DNA from: Kangiella sp.
Lineage (GTDB): Bacteria; Pseudomonadota; Gammaproteobacteria; Enterobacterales; Kangiellaceae
Direction: 5' to 3'
NCBI GenBank assembly: GCA_002733465.1
Contig: NVVT01000011.1
Location: 91,048 to 140,976 of the forward strand
DNA length: 49,929 nt
Made by a program: the position numbers and the translations under genes. The notes under the pieces are model-generated. The model made no database searches, had not been told where the DNA came from, and saw nothing but the letters and a program-made list of their open reading frames with translations. Each line of letters opens with the position of its first letter. The stretch's first letter is position 1. Positions 4,122 through 41,664 of the stretch are shown here, piece by piece.

Positions 4122-4739
4122 ATGTCATTTATATTCGCATATTTTTACGACAACTTAATGTCAAAAACAGAAGAAGCCTGCTTAAAAGAGTGGCGACAAA
4201 AACTCCTCAAAAATGTCTCTGGTGATGTTTTAGAAATTGGCGCTGGAACAGGAGCCAATATCGAGTTTTATCCTAAAAACATTAAATTAGTTTTAGCTGA
4301 ACCCGATAAAAATATGCGCCAACAAATTGAATCTAAAATCAGTAATAGCAAGTTAAAAACTACGATAGTATCTGACGGAACAGCAGAAAATATTGAAGCG
4401 AAGGATGACTCTTTTGATTTTGTTGTTTCAACTCTGGTATGTTGTTCTGTCACAAAGCCTGAACGTTCTTTACTTGAAATTAAAAGAGTCTTAAAACCTG
4501 GCGGTAGTTTAGTGTTTCTAGAACATGTTGGTGCAAAACAAGGATCTAAAAGAAGACGTTGGCAAAATATAATCAATCCATTTTGGAAAAAATTGGCTGG
4601 TAACTGTCATTTAAACCGAGATACCGAGGCATCTATATTGTCAGCAGGCTTCAAAATTAATGATATCAAACGGGAAAGCATGAGAAAAACAATACCAATT
4701 ATTCGACCTACAATTCGAGGTATGGCGGTAAAGCCATAA
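4122..4739 (+). CDS. Class I SAM-dependent methyltransferase (Methyltransf_11-like)
   Basis: It carries the SAM-binding motif VLEIGAGTGANIEF, an acidic loop LAEPD and the post-motif LKPGGSLVFLEH. Its ATG directly abuts the rhuM-like stop (TAAATG). Confidence 0.8.
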   Translation: MSFIFAYFYDNLMSKTEEACLKEWRQKLLKNVSGDVLEIGAGTGANIEFYPKNIKLVLAEPDKNMRQQIESKISNSKLKTTIVSDGTAENIEAKDDSFDFVVSTLVCCSVTKPERSLLEIKRVLKPGGSLVFLEHVGAKQGSKRRRWQNIINPFWKKLAGNCHLNRDTEASILSAGFKINDIKRESMRKTIPIIRPTIRGMAVKP

Positions 4740-4758
4740 TCTAGGTAGCCAACAGCTC

Positions 4759-6900
4759 TTATTGATCCTGTCGCCATTGCACACCTACAAAAAAGCTCCG
4801 ACGAACCCCAGGGAAATATCGCTCTTCAGTAAAAAAAGTATAGTCTGCGCGGGTGGCATATTTTTTGTTTAATAAATTATCTATTCGTGCAAAAACTTGC
4901 CAATCGTGATCCGTTTCCCAATTTACTCTTAAGTTGATCAGATCATGACCTTCATATTTATGCAGATTTTCTGCATCTGTAAAATAACCGCCTTGATGCA
5001 CCCACTCTAACTCGGTATTAAGGCTATCCGAGACGGCCCATTGTAGCTGTGCACTGCCGAATCGTTTTGGCGCGGTATCAATATCATTTCCATTGATATT
5101 TATTTCACCTAGCAATTGGTCGCTGACATATTGATGGGTTGCTAAAGATCCATTGATGGAAAAATTGAAGGAGTCGTTTATTAAATAATCGATCCGCGCT
5201 TCAACACCTCGATGTTTGGTTTGACCGTTACTTAAATTGAAAAAATTGGAATCTCGAAAAATTACATTATTTTTTTTCATTAAAAAAATCACCATTTCAT
5301 AAGAAAGTTGACGATGGTATTTCCTAAAACCCAATTCAAAACTATCTAGTTCAACCGATTTGAGATCTGCAACGGATTGCGATCGTTGCAATCGATATAA
5401 TTCAGTTGCCTGTGGAGCCCTAAACCCTTGAGCAAGATTTGCAAACACCTGCGAATTATTATCCAGTTGATAACCGACCCCCAATTTTGGCGACCAATTT
5501 GAAAACTCATCTTTTCGATCGTTTGGGCGACTGTAACGACAACCACCAAAACCACATTCAGTGCCATCCTCTCGGCTACGACCTGATAACATATTATTGC
5601 GATAGTCGTAACTCAAGTTCTCATAACGAATACCAGCGGTTATTTTCCACTGCTCTAAGAACTGCCAATCCAAGTGTAAAAAGGGTGCAACAAGGGTGGC
5701 GTCCACTTGGTAGTCATAGTGTTTACCGATGGGAATAGTGGCTTGTAAAAAAGCAGAGCCTTCAGTTGGATTTATTTGAGTTTGTTTTAAAAACCCGTCG
5801 CTAATCTCACTATCAAGACCGATAGACCAAGCTAGTTTATTACTCAGTTTTGAATAGTAACCCAGCTGAAATCCAAGGCTTTTCTGACCATTTTCTTCCA
5901 AGGGTTTGCCTGGCAAAAAATGCATTCTAAAAGTCATATCCGTCAATCGCACATAAGGGGTAAAGATGATTTTTGATTGCGTAGCTGAATTGCTAATATC
6001 GCCTAATGGTACTTCGAATCGGGACCATATTCTTAACGATTCAGCCTTTCTAAAAGCCTCTGGATTAGGGTTTGATCGAGCGACAGCGCTATTTCGATAA
6101 CTATCAGCGCCTAAAACAAAACCCGCTGTTTGTTGATTTAAATGAGTGAGACTAATTCCGCTATTCACCACTAAATCTTTAGTAGAATATAAATGTCGTC
6201 CACTCAATTTTTGTTGTTCATAGCCAGAATCATTTCGATAGCCTCCATCATGAGCAACGGTTAACGCTAGATTATAACCCGACGTTAGGTTATCAGAATC
6301 GGTGTTTCGGCTTCCAACTTGGGCTTTAAAACGAGAAAAGTCATCACTGCCTATTTCAATACCGAGCGAAGCGCGCGGGGATGCTGGTACGTCGGGAGTA
6401 TTAATGTTAATAATCCCATGTAGCGCGTTGGAACCGTAAAACGCACTTCCCGGCCCGCGCACCACTTCAATACTTTGCGCCTGTTCAGTATGTGCTTCAA
6501 AGAGTTCATTCACATTGCAAAAACCGGCGGCCCTTAAAGGGATATTATCCTCGGTGATTAAAAAACCACCGCAAGCTCCTGCTCCGGTTAACACCGGTGA
6601 ACGGATCGCCGGTAAATATTCTTGCCCGTTCCCTCGTTGTAAATTAACACCTGGAATTCTTTGTAATAATTCTTGAATATGCACATGAGCCACCTGACTA
6701 ATTTCTTCAACGGAAATTTTGTCAACATTGCCAATGTGCAAATGAGCATCTGAATCAGTGCGGGTTGCAATAACGATAATTGTTTTATCGTCAGCAGCTA
6801 GTTGTTCTTGTTGTTGCTCTTGTTGTTGATTTTTCGATTCCAAACCACTAACCAGCGGGCTTAGTAAAACCAATAAAACACACAGCGTATTTTTTCTCAT
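4759..6900 (-). CDS. TonB-dependent outer-membrane receptor
   Basis: It has a signal peptide (MRKNTLCVLLVLLSPLVSG), a TonB-box-like TIIVIATR, plug-domain motifs (IEVVRGPGSAFYGSNALHGIINI) and a C-terminal beta-barrel ending in an aromatic-rich terminus. Length is 713 aa. Confidence 0.9.
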   Translation of the reverse strand: MRKNTLCVLLVLLSPLVSGLESKNQQQEQQQEQLAADDKTIIVIATRTDSDAHLHIGNVDKISVEEISQVAHVHIQELLQRIPGVNLQRGNGQEYLPAIRSPVLTGAGACGGFLITEDNIPLRAAGFCNVNELFEAHTEQAQSIEVVRGPGSAFYGSNALHGIININTPDVPASPRASLGIEIGSDDFSRFKAQVGSRNTDSDNLTSGYNLALTVAHDGGYRNDSGYEQQKLSGRHLYSTKDLVVNSGISLTHLNQQTAGFVLGADSYRNSAVARSNPNPEAFRKAESLRIWSRFEVPLGDISNSATQSKIIFTPYVRLTDMTFRMHFLPGKPLEENGQKSLGFQLGYYSKLSNKLAWSIGLDSEISDGFLKQTQINPTEGSAFLQATIPIGKHYDYQVDATLVAPFLHLDWQFLEQWKITAGIRYENLSYDYRNNMLSGRSREDGTECGFGGCRYSRPNDRKDEFSNWSPKLGVGYQLDNNSQVFANLAQGFRAPQATELYRLQRSQSVADLKSVELDSFELGFRKYHRQLSYEMVIFLMKKNNVIFRDSNFFNLSNGQTKHRGVEARIDYLINDSFNFSINGSLATHQYVSDQLLGEININGNDIDTAPKRFGSAQLQWAVSDSLNTELEWVHQGGYFTDAENLHKYEGHDLINLRVNWETDHDWQVFARIDNLLNKKYATRADYTFFTEERYFPGVRRSFFVGVQWRQDQ

Positions 6901-38097: not shown

Positions 38098-38211
38098 CAT
38101 TTAAGCGATCAAATAAAATCGTTTAAATTCCCTCGTAAGACATTCTTAACAGGTATTCTCAAAATTTTAAGCAACAATGCTGTTTATTAAAACAGCAATG
38201 AGGATACAGTC

Positions 38212-39420
38212 ATGCCTATAAAAATTGAATTAAATAAAAATGCGAAGAATGGAATGAAGCCAGTAAAAATATTTACTCGCGACATTGGCAACACCGCTTT
38301 GACACAGTTAAAGAACTTGTCGCAGCTTCCTTTTATTCATTCGCATATCGCCGCTATGCCGGATGTGCACGCAGGAATTGGTGCAACCGTTGGTTCGGTT
38401 ATTCCAACCGATGGCGCAATTATTCCTGCAGCGGTTGGAGTTGATATTGGTTGTGGAATGAACGCTGTGAGGCTTTCAATAAAGTCATCACAACTACCAA
38501 CTAACTTAAAGGAAATACGTTTTGCGATTGAACGTGCGATCCCGGTGGGAGCGAAGGCTCACAAAATGATATCGGCTCGAGATAAGAGTATTCGACAATT
38601 ACAAACAGGAATGGATTTTATATTTGAAAAACATTCGGCGTTGTTGAAGATGATGAAAAAACCTCGGCAAACCTGGGTTCAACAAATGGGAACTTTAGGT
38701 AGTGGCAATCACTTTATTGAAATCTGCATCGATGAAAATAAAGATGTCTGGATCATGTTGCACTCGGGTAGCCGAGGAATTGGTAATGCGATTGGTCGTT
38801 ACTTTATTAGTAAAGCGAAGAAAGATATGCAAGGTCATATGCAAAATTTACCTGACCGAGATTTATCTTATTTTAGTGAGGGTTGTGAGAACTTTGATGA
38901 TTATATGTTTGCTGTTGATTGGGCGCAAAGGTATGCATTTTATAATCGACAAGAGATGATGGAGCTAGTTGTTAGAGCGATTAAGCCTTTCCTTCCGCCA
39001 TTTCAATTAACCAAGGAAGCGATCAATTGTCATCACAATTATGTAAACAAAGAACACCATTTTGGTAAAGATGTTTACGTGACAAGAAAAGGTGCGATTA
39101 GTGCACAAGACGGTGAGTTAGGAATTATCCCAGGCAGTATGGGAACTAACTCCTACATTGTCAGTGGTAAAGGCAAAGCGGATTCTTTTTGTTCTTGTGC
39201 TCATGGAGCAGGAAGAAAAATGACGAGAACAGCCGCGAGAAAAAGATTTAGAAGAGAAGATATGGAAGAACAAACACAAGGCGTTGAATGCAGAAAAGAT
39301 AGTCGAGTGATCGATGAGATCCCTGCAGCCTATAAAGACATTGAAACGGTTATGGAAAATCAGTCGGATCTTATTAGTGTTGTTCACCAGTTAAAACAAG
39401 TTGTTTGCATTAAGGGATAG
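38212..39420 (+). CDS. rtcB: RNA 3-prime-phosphate/5-prime-OH ligase RtcB
   Basis: The motifs are MPDVHAGIGATVGSVIP, GVDIGCGM, GSGNHFIE, HSGSRGIGN, NCHHNY and SCAHGAGR (guanylylated His). It is 402 aa, like E. coli RtcB. GAGGA lies 7 nt upstream of the ATG. Confidence 0.95.
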   Translation: MPIKIELNKNAKNGMKPVKIFTRDIGNTALTQLKNLSQLPFIHSHIAAMPDVHAGIGATVGSVIPTDGAIIPAAVGVDIGCGMNAVRLSIKSSQLPTNLKEIRFAIERAIPVGAKAHKMISARDKSIRQLQTGMDFIFEKHSALLKMMKKPRQTWVQQMGTLGSGNHFIEICIDENKDVWIMLHSGSRGIGNAIGRYFISKAKKDMQGHMQNLPDRDLSYFSEGCENFDDYMFAVDWAQRYAFYNRQEMMELVVRAIKPFLPPFQLTKEAINCHHNYVNKEHHFGKDVYVTRKGAISAQDGELGIIPGSMGTNSYIVSGKGKADSFCSCAHGAGRKMTRTAARKRFRREDMEEQTQGVECRKDSRVIDEIPAAYKDIETVMENQSDLISVVHQLKQVVCIKG

Positions 39421-39539
39421 ATAAATTATGAATAGCACAACATACGAGGAGACCTAGATTATGAAAAATAATTTTAGCCACAATAACAAAAAAATGGCTT
39501 TTATAAAGCTTTTACGAAAACGAATTAGGAAAAGAAATC

Positions 39540-40490
39540 ATGGAAATAAAATTATTAGAGGAGGTGTTGGATTGTCTGAATGATGGACGACGATTAGTTC
39601 ACTATTATGATGATCAATATGCTCTATATTTGTTACAGAAATTTTGTGAGAAAAAAATCACTAAAGATCAATCTAGCATACAGATAAAGGAGATTAAAAG
39701 TTCTTGTTTTGCAAAGTTGCTAAATAAGCCAAGTATCGTAAAGTTACTGTCCGAATTAGGTGATGGAAAATTATCATCGGACCGATTGCTACAGGTATCA
39801 GCTCAAGAGTTCGAAAGCTATGTGATTACTTTATCGCAATGGGGAAAGAAGGAAGACTATCCGTGGGAACAGACTTCAGTGCCAGGTTCTAATTTAGTAT
39901 TGCAGCTAAATTTAACTAATAAGCATGACCAGTTATTGAAAGACTTAGAAATAGATAGTGAACCATTTCGGTTTGATGATCACCCTATTCACTCTGTCAA
40001 AAATTCTTTGTCTTGGGCAAGAATTGATTTTAACTTTGAAACGGGCGAAGCGTTAATCGAAGAAGTCCAAAATGATTGGTTAAGGATAGCGTCTAGGCAT
40101 GCAGAATCGGCTAAAAGAGCGATTCTAAATGGCAGTACATTTTATAGACGTTGGGGCGTAAAATATAAAGCAAAAAATATGCTTGAATATACCCAAGATT
40201 TGTTACCTAAGCATAAAAAGAACTGGCAGGAGATCACGCTATTTTATGCGATAAAATTGATTAAGCAAGAAATTGGTATCAATAAGATTTTTTATCATAG
40301 CTATGAAACAGGGGCATTGTTAAAGAACATCAATGGTCGTTTACCGCCTCGTTCTTTATATACCGATTTACCAAAGCGGTTTTGCTTTACTCCGTGTAAT
40401 ACTGGACCCGAATTTATTACGAAGGATTGCAGAGTCAAAAGAAAACTGAAGAAAGCAAAGACTGAAAATTGGTTTTGTCTATCTTTGTAA
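39540..40490 (+). CDS. Hypothetical soluble 316-aa protein, no family recognised
   Basis: This long ORF is co-directional between rtcB and the small basic protein gene. It has no TM helix or signal peptide. An acidic cluster WARIDFNFETGEALIEEVQNDW is present and the C-terminus is basic (KRKLKKAK). Confidence 0.65.
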   Translation: MEIKLLEEVLDCLNDGRRLVHYYDDQYALYLLQKFCEKKITKDQSSIQIKEIKSSCFAKLLNKPSIVKLLSELGDGKLSSDRLLQVSAQEFESYVITLSQWGKKEDYPWEQTSVPGSNLVLQLNLTNKHDQLLKDLEIDSEPFRFDDHPIHSVKNSLSWARIDFNFETGEALIEEVQNDWLRIASRHAESAKRAILNGSTFYRRWGVKYKAKNMLEYTQDLLPKHKKNWQEITLFYAIKLIKQEIGINKIFYHSYETGALLKNINGRLPPRSLYTDLPKRFCFTPCNTGPEFITKDCRVKRKLKKAKTENWFCLSL

Positions 40491-40531
40491 TTTTAACCTT
40501 TGTCACAATGACATAAAAACTAGGAGGTAAC

Positions 40532-40819
40532 ATGTCTAAAAAACGCAGTAGCAAACGAATGAACAGAACGCTGAATAGCTTAGAAGTTTCCAAAAACCAT
40601 TCGGCGATGCAAATAACGATTGCGCCAGTCGCACCTAGAAATCCGTATGCAAATCATCCATTGATGAGAAAAAGTGCGGTTCACGAAAAATCGAAATCTG
40701 CAGAACGTTCTAAGACTCGTCGCGAGACCAAGCAATTGGCTCGCGATTGGTCAACTCATTCATCCAGCTTAATATTTAAATATTTTTGGACTGACGTTCC
40801 TTTTCGCTACAGTAAATAG
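40532..40819 (+). CDS. Small basic protein with ArfA-like (alternative ribosome-rescue factor) layout
   Basis: AGGAGG lies 4 nt upstream of the ATG. The core NHPLMRKSAVHEKSKSAERSKTRR resembles E. coli ArfA [22 protein letters not shown] (recalled from memory). It shares the pattern PL-[FM]-R ... EK-x-K-x4-S-x2-R-[RK]. A Trp follows, then a hydrophobic or aromatic tail (LIFKYFWTDVPF). An intra-ORF hairpin occupies codons 63-72. Confidence 0.55.
   Translation: MSKKRSSKRMNRTLNSLEVSKNHSAMQITIAPVAPRNPYANHPLMRKSAVHEKSKSAERSKTRRETKQLARDWSTHSSSLIFKYFWTDVPFRYSK
40720..40746 (+). promoter_or_regulatory. GC-rich stem-loop inside the ArfA-like ORF (candidate RNase III / mRNA-truncation element)
   Basis: TCGCGAG-A-CCAA [GCAA] TTGG-CTCGCGA pairs 11 bp with one bulged A and a GNRA-type tetraloop. 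No U-tract follows. Confidence 0.6.
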
Positions 40820-40871: not shown

Positions 40872-41387
40872 TCACAATAAGCGCGAAACAACCTCAAGAC
40901 AATTCTTTAAAGGTAACCACATTTCAAGTCGATCGTTGTTATCAGAATCTGCTGGCAAAAAACCATATTGTTCGTAAAATTTTATGATACTTGAATTCAT
41001 CGGGTCTACAAATAACCCTATTGCTGAAATTTGTTCAGCAACTAATACGGTCCTATTGATAGCATCAATTAATAACTTTTCACCTAAATATTGGTTTTAG
41101 TAAGACTGCGCCACAGCAAGACATGCTAATTTAACAGCGCTAAGAGGATGTGGGTATTTTTTATAATATTTATGTGTTGGCGGAATCGTAACGGAATAGC
41201 CTGTTAGGGTGTGATAACCGATTATGTTGGTTGGCTCTGTATCCTGACAGGCTACGTATGTTTTTGATATTTGTTTTGCATTTTTTTGACGAGGTTAGTG
41301 TTGTAAAAATTCATTCAACTCACTAACACCACAATCAAAATATTTTCGATTATGGTACCGAGTAATCTCCTCAATGATTAGTGACAT
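40872..41387 (-). pseudogene. TacT-like GNAT acetyltransferase toxin gene inactivated by two in-frame TAA codons
   Basis: My hand translation in one frame of 172 codons gives MSLIIEEITRYHNRKYFDCGVSELNEFLQH*PRQKNAKQISKTYVACQDTEPTNIIGYHTLTGYSV...LACLAVAQSY*NQYLGEKLLIDAINRTVLVAEQISAIGLFVDPMNSSIIKFYEQYGFLPADS...LPLKNCLEVVSRLL*. The stops are at 41295-41297 and 41097-41099. The start overlaps the end of the upstream DUF1778 antitoxin gene. Confidence 0.75.
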
Positions 41388-41664
41388 TCACTGTGCCCTT
41401 GTAGCGACTAGCTGCTTTAAGTAATTTGCTACTTGTTTGTGGCGCACTCTCCAATGCGCTCAGTAAAGCATCAGCACCCGCCATCGACAAATTCAAAGTC
41501 TCTGTTCGTTCAATGACTTTTCTAGATTTTTCCATAGCCGAATCAATAAGAAACTGAGAAACGGTTGCGCCAGAATAATCCGCGGCGCGTTGAATAAATT
41601 CCTGAATTTCATTAGAAGTTCGAGCAACTAAACGAGTTTCTTTGCGTTCGATGTTAGTCGCCAT
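41371..41664 (-). CDS. DUF1778 (TacA-type, RHH) antitoxin
   Basis: RLVARTSNEIQEFIQRAADYSGATVSQFLIDSAMEKSRKVIE is the DUF1778 signature. It is 97 aa and is followed by a GNAT gene remnant. Confidence 0.8.
   Translation of the reverse strand: MATNIERKETRLVARTSNEIQEFIQRAADYSGATVSQFLIDSAMEKSRKVIERTETLNLSMAGADALLSALESAPQTSSKLLKAASRYKGTVNVTNH

Follow-up and report, generated by a model that had tools for sequence, protein, structure and literature searches.

To our knowledge, the RtcB2-PrfH pair is the only known coupling of ribosome rescue and RNA repair. Another kind of control, by non-stop messenger RNA (mRNA), is found in small rescue factors: owing to a stem-loop, the arfA transcript terminates early or is cut by RNase III, so that ArfA is translated from non-stop mRNA and cleared by trans-translation, and full-length ArfA is unstable through its hydrophobic C-terminus (PMC8012679). 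In brfA, a rho-independent terminator precedes the stop codon (PMC8012679). ArfA, BrfA, and ArfT are mutually unrelated in sequence, and a review expects further small rescue factors that sequence searches will not reveal (PMC8012679). Here we describe three neighboring genes in a 49,929-nucleotide (nt) stretch of DNA from a metagenome-assembled genome of Kangiella sp. (the window; coordinates are window positions): rtcB, which encodes an RNA ligase, the gene of a 316-amino-acid (aa) protein designated p316, and the gene of a small basic protein. We propose, at a probability of roughly 45%, that this module is a translation-stress-gated ribosome/RNA rescue-and-repair unit, which would be analogous, not homologous, to ArfA/BrfA and RtcB2-PrfH. 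The proposal draws on the conserved linkage of the three genes and on an RNA hairpin located within the small gene, upstream of its stop codon.

The three co-directional genes named in the preliminary description were found as open reading frames (ORFs) on the + strand, with gaps of 119 nt and 41 nt between them, and AGGAGG was read ahead of the third. The features of the module are as follows.

38180–38195, no strand assigned: LexA-box-like palindrome CTGTTTATTAAAACAG (CTGT-N8-ACAG), immediately 5' of the rtcB ribosome-binding site
38212–39420, + strand: rtcB, 402 aa, 3'-phosphate/5'-hydroxyl RNA ligase matching PF01139
39540–40490, + strand: p316 gene, 316 aa, founding member of an unannotated conserved family that looks enzymatic
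40520–40525, + strand: AGGAGG, Shine-Dalgarno sequence of the small gene, read from the sequence
40532–40819, + strand: gene of the small basic protein, 95 aa in its annotated form
40637–40756, + strand: region encoding the conserved core, residues 36–75, with the invariant His51 (40682–40684) and Arg59
40714–40752, + strand: in-ORF RNA hairpin GACUCGUCGCGAGACC-AAGCAA-UUGGCUCGCGAUUGGUC, free energy (dG) −24.5 kcal/mol, z = −6.2
40757–40819, + strand: C-terminal tail THSSSLIFKYFWTDVPFRYSK, encoded 3' of the hairpin, aromatic/hydrophobic and unconserved

Conservation of the three-gene module

Gene neighborhoods were surveyed in the 80 best p316 genome loci, in which the window proteins were sought by tblastn and iterated hidden Markov models (HMMs). 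Related genome loci are designated by L-numbers and p316 relatives by P-numbers. The rtcB gene was adjacent to p316 in 49–51 loci, small-protein homologues were recovered with the iterated HMM in 59, and both genes were present in 46, which bears out the grouping of the three genes made in the preliminary description. The adjacent RtcBs belonged to the same clade as the window RtcB (57–83% identity), and loci with the complete module spanned Gamma- and Betaproteobacteria. Most Gammaproteobacteria had the gene order rtcB-p316-small, Dechloromonas and Azonexus had rtcB-small-p316, and Ketobacter-like genomes had p316-small-rtcB. The existence of three orders suggests that the linkage has been selected and is not merely inherited synteny; that the genes stay linked despite rearrangement is good evidence of a functional unit.

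Among the conserved neighbors of the 80 loci, no further broadly conserved gene was detected, and neither rtcA nor a release-factor-like gene was present. In six loci, a gene with an RbfA domain (PF02033) was located directly 5' of rtcB on the same strand (L053, positions 4279–4683; L060, L062, L067, L070, and L079), forming a four-gene operon of the order RbfA-like–RtcB–p316–small. Band-7/SPFH genes occurred near the module in five loci. In Alphaproteobacteria of the Hyphomicrobiales type, p316 stood alone between guaB and guaA, abutting a gene for an RsmB/F-type 16S rRNA methyltransferase; in L034 and L057 the methyltransferase gene occupied positions 4711–6000 and p316 began at position 6001, and the arrangement was similar in L029, L031, L036, L046, L048, L049, and L064. 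The RbfA-like and RsmB-type neighbors are hints that point to the 30S subunit. Since stand-alone contexts exist, p316 has a function of its own, for which hints of the small subunit or RNA recur, and one large lineage group has recruited RtcB and the small protein to it. An origin of the module from a mobile element or a defense system was considered and received no support: none of the three proteins had a PADLOC match at E ≤ 10, and no copies of p316 were found in plasmid and phage collections.

The small gene and its hairpin

Members of the small-protein family consist of a basic N-terminus, a sharply conserved core, and a variable tail. The core consensus is PRNPxAxHPLMRKGGVHEKSxxAKRxxxK, in which His51 and Arg59 are invariant. 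The peptide NHPLMRKSAVHEKSKSAERSKTRR, to which the preliminary description had drawn attention, is present in the window protein and is followed by Trp and the aromatic/hydrophobic tail. Entropy at codon positions 1, 2, and 3 of the small ORF was 0.85, 0.57, and 1.61, and synonymous changes accounted for 49% of the differing codons in its frame vs. 3–5% in the other two frames. These values clearly point to protein-level selection on the small ORF; the alternative of a non-coding RNA element was excluded by the codon-position analysis. The tails were conserved neither in length nor in sequence and were often hydrophobic. Ends of the -AA type (e.g., -SLAA and -LLAA) were found in 7 of 60 tails compared to 2.6% of background ORFs (p = 9e-4), with the reservation that related species are not independent samples; such ends resemble the ssrA degron and occur, for example, in L010, L021, L023, L028, L044, L056, and L001.

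For each small gene, the 150 nt on either side of the stop codon were scanned for the local hairpin of greatest stability, and other conserved genes of the same loci served as controls. The ORF contained this hairpin in full in 50 of 60 small genes (83%) vs. 142 of 377 controls (38%; Fisher p = 2e-11). The hairpin lay inside the ORF with a dG of −17 kcal/mol or lower in 46/60 small genes vs. 78/377 controls (p = 4e-17). The median dG of the best in-ORF hairpin was −20.2 kcal/mol compared to −14.1 kcal/mol in controls (Mann-Whitney p = 1.5e-14), and its median z against shuffled sequences was −3.1, with 38 of 59 small genes below −2. A stem with a U-tract inside the ORF was detected in 33% of small genes (20/60) and in 8.7% of controls (33/378; p = 2e-6).

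In the window, 67 nt separate the hairpin from the end of the stop codon, and the corresponding 141-nt region folds with z = −3.27. Equivalent in-ORF hairpins or terminators were found in about two thirds of the small-family members, and in many species the element was a textbook intrinsic terminator within the ORF, for example in L059 (AAAAAAGCCGCGGAGGAUUCCGCGGCUUUUUU), L053, L067, L025, and L020/L027 (CCCGCGAUUUUUU). In a codon-registered view, the hairpin always started about 12 codons past the invariant His, following or overlapping the end of the core. Stem sequences and pairing registers varied between clades; the position after the core was constant. In eight Kangiellaceae sequences, 86.5% of the cells paired vs. 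23–45% when the partner was slid. The hairpin was also present in loci with rtcB downstream of the small gene in the same operon (L008, L011, and L014), and its retention there means that it is not merely an operon terminator. By analogy with arfA and brfA, RNase III cleavage or termination at the window hairpin may yield non-stop mRNA, and the small-gene product would probably be truncated near residue 74.

The p316 family

The preliminary description regarded p316 as an orphan, a view that did not survive database searches. More than 250 relatives were matched in a 90%-identity cluster database, and at 50% identity the family comprised 940 representative clusters, 480 of these at E ≤ 1e-30. 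It is encoded in at least 526 species-level genomes belonging to Gamma-, Beta-, and Alphaproteobacteria, Desulfobacterota, SAR324, and Verrucomicrobiota. No match to p316 was found in Pfam, NCBIfam, PADLOC, or PHROGs; thirty family members scanned one by one against Pfam gave no match, GNAT included, and the family profile found nothing among PDB sequences.

An alignment of 30 sequences contained 31 invariant positions, many of them polar. Among the invariant residues were Y22, Y27, Q111, N124, H148-P149, W159-x-R161, R182, E231, and K262, along with the stretches E174-E175-x-Q177-x-D179 and PP-x-S-x-Y (motif PPRSLYT). The many invariant polar residues suggest that p316 is an enzyme. The AlphaFold2 model was of high confidence, with a predicted local distance difference test score (pLDDT) of 90.6 and a predicted template modeling score (pTM) of 0.91. 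A Foldseek search of this model against PDB yielded nothing significant; the best matches were GNAT acetyltransferases with E ≥ 0.18 and TM-scores of 0.2–0.45. The viral library again returned GNAT-type proteins, together with two uncharacterized large viral proteins (E ~4e-4, low TM-scores). The acetyl-CoA/pyrophosphate-binding motif (beta4-alpha3, R/Q-x-x-G-x-G/A) was not among the conserved columns of p316. Judging by the model, a very distant GNAT-like alpha/beta fold is possible for p316, membership in that superfamily not being established. Assignment of p316 to the PD-(D/E)xK nucleases (motif D163...E175-x-Q177) was also considered and received no support from Foldseek or profile searches.

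Some p316 relatives are longer, with 390–408 aa (P0296, P0323, P0351, P0357, and P0383; L084, L085, and L086), and have a basic N-terminal extension of 80–90 aa with the conserved motif KKGGMGG(R/K)LG(R/H)SNMSHW. Their genes have no RtcB neighbor, and in L085 and L086 the extended p316 gene overlaps a ThiF-family gene. Fusion of the small protein to p316 in these members was rejected, since the extension (KKGGMGGRLGRSNMSHW...) scored like shuffled sequence against the small-protein HMM; the absence of RtcB neighbors further disfavors it.

RtcB

The identification of RtcB in the preliminary description was sound: the protein matched Pfam PF01139 at full length with E 3.7e-131 and 438.7 bits (cut-off 27), residues 32–402 corresponding to profile positions 1–426. 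Its translation shows PDVHAGIG, GVDIGCGM, GSGNHF, and SCAHGAGRKM and was aligned with RtcB of T. thermophilus; judged from the sequence, the metal-binding Cys/His/Asp motifs and the HGAGR segment with the His nucleophile are intact. Identity to RtcBs of solved structure was ~30%. The E. coli-type RtcB equivalog of NCBIfam (NF007153) gave 187.5 bits, under its cut-off of 407, and the model of PrfH-linked RtcB, TIGR03073 (release_rtcB), gave 145.5 bits, under its cut-off of 271.8. The usual partners were missing, as had been stated earlier: rtcA, RtcR, archease, and prfH did not occur within ~5 kb of the module, and the Rfam scan detected no Y RNA anywhere in the window.

Two loci contain unusual rtcB genes. 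In L006 (positions ~5812–5948), all that is left of rtcB upstream of p316 is its first 23 codons and its last 30, indicative of an internal deletion, whereas the p316 and small genes are both intact. In L081, a 521-aa RtcB (positions 4960–6525) that is 25% identical to the window RtcB stands beside a divergent p316 (P0114). This RtcB is extended by ~90 aa at the N-terminus and ends in a basic tail of 37 aa; no separate small gene is present, and a tRNA U5-methyltransferase gene is located downstream in convergent orientation. The possibility that the small protein is fused into this 521-aa RtcB was rejected, as no match to the small-protein HMM was obtained.

Upstream region and surroundings of the module

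A sigma54-like site was found upstream of the module in one of 49 loci, which equals the background level and differs from rtcBA. Sigma54 control was also considered with regard to nearby genes and found to be unsupported: the sigma54 activators in the vicinity lack a CARF domain and are inconsistently placed. The palindrome CTGTTTATTAAAACAG is the sole CTGT-N8-ACAG of the 49.9-kb window, the background rate being 0.2% of 310-nt windows. A LexA-box-like site occurred upstream in only 1 of 75 related loci and is not a conserved part of the module. SOS control through this palindrome was rejected; although unique in the window, the site is not conserved elsewhere, and it may at most be a lineage-specific operator.

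The neighbors of the module are genes for a pyridoxal phosphate enzyme, a UDG-superfamily protein, a TacA antitoxin with a TacT pseudogene, and an alpha/beta hydrolase. The TacA-type antitoxin gene is intact (41371–41664, − strand; PF08681, E 1.8e-22). It is followed by a TacT-like GNAT toxin gene (~40872–41370, − strand) with two in-frame stop codons, and the pair (40872–41664, − strand) is a decayed toxin-antitoxin system convergent to the module. The rtcB-p316 spacer contains a 40-codon Lys/Arg-rich ORF (39461–39583) that overlaps the start of p316 and is probably spurious. Far from the module, a c-di-GMP-I riboswitch is located at 2258–2348 on the − strand (Rfam RF01051, 56 bits, above the gathering score).

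Proposed function and alternative explanations

On the model of arfA and brfA, the small-gene transcript would end short of its stop codon. Its product would, in healthy cells, be tagged by transfer-messenger RNA (tmRNA) and then degraded, and any full-length product of read-through would carry a hydrophobic or -LAA-like tail that makes it unstable. Only when trans-translation is saturated, e.g., after nuclease toxins have cut rRNA, tRNA, or mRNA and have stalled ribosomes en masse, would the truncated core peptide build up. Through its basic core, in which His and Arg are invariant, the peptide could then attach to stalled or damaged 30S/70S particles at the empty mRNA channel or decoding region and, once bound, would bring in or license p316 and RtcB. 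A catalytic activity of an uncharacterized kind on the ribosome or RNA would be contributed by p316, and RtcB would reseal breaks with 2',3'-cyclic-phosphate and 5'-OH ends. If tmRNA is absent, release of a protein encoded by non-stop mRNA needs an alternative rescue activity, which in the case of ArfA is ArfA itself. This need favors a rescue-type function for the small protein. A more specific version is tentative and, on balance, somewhat unlikely: the small family may be an additional, independently evolved non-stop-mRNA rescue or sensing factor after ArfA and BrfA, and the first in an operon with an RNA ligase and p316, so that rescue and repair would be turned on when trans-translation is exhausted. 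The preliminary description had compared the locus with ArfA and RtcB2-PrfH. As a functional analogy, the comparison has become more plausible, since a hairpin or terminator inside the ORF is the regulatory design of arfA and brfA; as a statement of homology to ArfA, it did not hold.

Several results weigh against the rescue-and-repair proposal. RNAalifold found no common structure across clades in 22 sequences, which is explained by the different pairing registers of the clades. Of the 13 pairs in the Kangiellaceae stem, 7 do not vary and double compensatory changes are absent; the stem may partly reflect the conserved RRE...ARD codons of this clade. The window hairpin has no U-tract, whereas the relative L001 has seven U's, and truncation in Kangiella would for that reason need RNase III or a similar enzyme. 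About one third of the small-family members have no significant hairpin. Among them, the betaproteobacterial small protein instead has a conserved acidic end, -AEFEID. In 18 of the 80 loci, and also in other phyla, p316 occurs without rtcB or the small gene. The similarity to ArfA claimed for the 95-aa protein failed in every search: PF03889 was matched by none of 47 family members, even at E ≤ 10, and the family profile found none of the PDB chains, ArfA chains included, at E ≤ 10. The hhalign comparison with an alignment of 20 bona fide ArfA proteins gave a probability of 0.16% and E 0.38 over 7 columns. As to BrfA, which PDB 6SZS contains (PMC8012679), the same profile search found no chain at E ≤ 10, the presence of the BrfA chain in the searched copy being unconfirmed.

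By sequence, then, the small protein is not a detectable ArfA homologue and is not ArfA-like. It might still be a highly divergent true homologue that recruits RF2 to non-stop ribosomes. The seven hhalign columns (ANHPLMR vs. LHDPLFR) do fall on the H-x-P-L-[FM]-R patch picked out in the preliminary description, and small size, basic character, in-ORF hairpin, and unstable tail are shared; these columns are statistically not meaningful, the invariant KGKGS segment and the KH motif of ArfA have no counterpart in the family consensus, and, with the failed searches just listed, we consider this the least probable of the alternatives. The main rival, itself unlikely, takes the small protein for an RNA-binding cofactor or chaperone of RtcB and/or p316, comparable to archease, and the hairpin for an ordinary operon terminator or a stabilizing stem over a dispensable 3' end of the ORF, with no role for trans-translation. 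The small gene is usually the last of the operon, where a terminator is expected anyway, covariation is not demonstrated, and the betaproteobacterial variant works without a hairpin. Such an explanation has to contend with the rarity of terminators in the last 150 nt of ORFs among the same-locus controls (8.7% vs. 33%) and with the hairpins kept where rtcB lies downstream in the same operon; moreover, a terminator before the stop codon necessarily produces non-stop transcripts, whatever its purpose.

The two other alternatives turn on p316. It could be an enzyme that modifies RNA or the ribosome so as to mark or immunize what has been repaired, in the manner of Hen1 in Pnkp-Hen1, with the small protein as an RNA-targeting subunit, the logic being to heal, seal, and protect, not to rescue. 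The GNAT-like (acyl-transferase) Foldseek matches, weak but recurrent in both libraries, would suit such a role, as would the RNA-modification genes (RsmB/F 16S methyltransferase, ThiF-family gene) that p316 adjoins elsewhere and its existence as a stand-alone gene. We regard it as improbable, given that the conserved columns include no acetyl-CoA motif, every fold match is non-significant or low in TM-score, and the in-ORF terminator is left unexplained. A toxin-antitoxin-like or defense module, in which p316 is a GNAT-like translation toxin, the unstable small protein its antitoxin, and RtcB the means of reversing collateral RNA damage, is very improbable. Degron-like tails (7/60 ending in -AA) and the weak structural likeness of p316 to GNAT toxins, among other GNATs, agree with it; the lack of PADLOC matches, the absence of the family from plasmids and phages, and the extremely basic character of the small protein, unlike that of antitoxins of GNAT toxins, do not. 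Moreover, p316 is found alone in housekeeping contexts (guaB-rsmB-p316-guaA), which would be intolerable for a toxin.

Significance

Neither p316 nor the small family has a Pfam or NCBIfam model, and full-text literature searches returned no description of the module or of either partner family, although an earlier mention of an association with RtcB cannot be excluded. The in-ORF terminator following a conserved basic core is a searchable signature and flags a rescue-factor candidate in hundreds of species. Should the rescue-and-repair proposal be true, the fixed linkage to RtcB would extend the coupling of rescue and RNA repair beyond RtcB2-PrfH, and bacterial RtcB paralogues, the substrates of which are mostly unknown, would gain a testable physiological context. 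The p316 family, which has ~940 clusters, no annotation, a confidently predicted fold, and no close structural relative, would also gain a first functional handle.

Comparison with known systems

The small family resembles ArfA and BrfA, which are release-factor-dependent rescue factors, in its small size (~50–100 aa as annotated), strongly basic character, and conserved His in a basic stretch, as well as in the stem-loop or terminator that precedes the stop codon within the ORF and in the unconserved tail, which is hydrophobic or unstable. It differs from them in having no detectable sequence or profile similarity and neither KGKGS nor a literal KH, and in its location in an operon with RtcB and p316, whereas arfA and brfA are stand-alone genes. 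GNAT-fold acyltransferases (e.g., RimI/J/L, TacT, and the GNAT domain of Elp3) recur as the best, though weak, Foldseek matches of the p316 model in PDB and the viral library; p316 has no sequence or profile match to the superfamily and no recognizable acetyl-CoA-binding motif.

Like the RtcBA-RtcR system of E. coli and Salmonella, the module places an RtcB ligase in a stress-linked operon; unlike it, the module has no RtcA, no CARF-containing RtcR, and no upstream sigma54 promoter above background, and its RtcB scores under the equivalog cut-off. The likeness to RtcB2-PrfH lies in an RtcB paralogue coupled to a factor that is expected to recognize damaged or stalled ribosomes and in the proposed logic of rescue followed by ligation (PMC6514570). 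In contrast to that pair, no PrfH or other release-factor homologue is present, only RtcB is homologous, RtcB is partnered by two unannotated families, and a trans-translation gate is predicted in addition. Both known kinds of system, rescue coupled to RNA repair and small factors gated by non-stop mRNA, would thus be realized here with new components.

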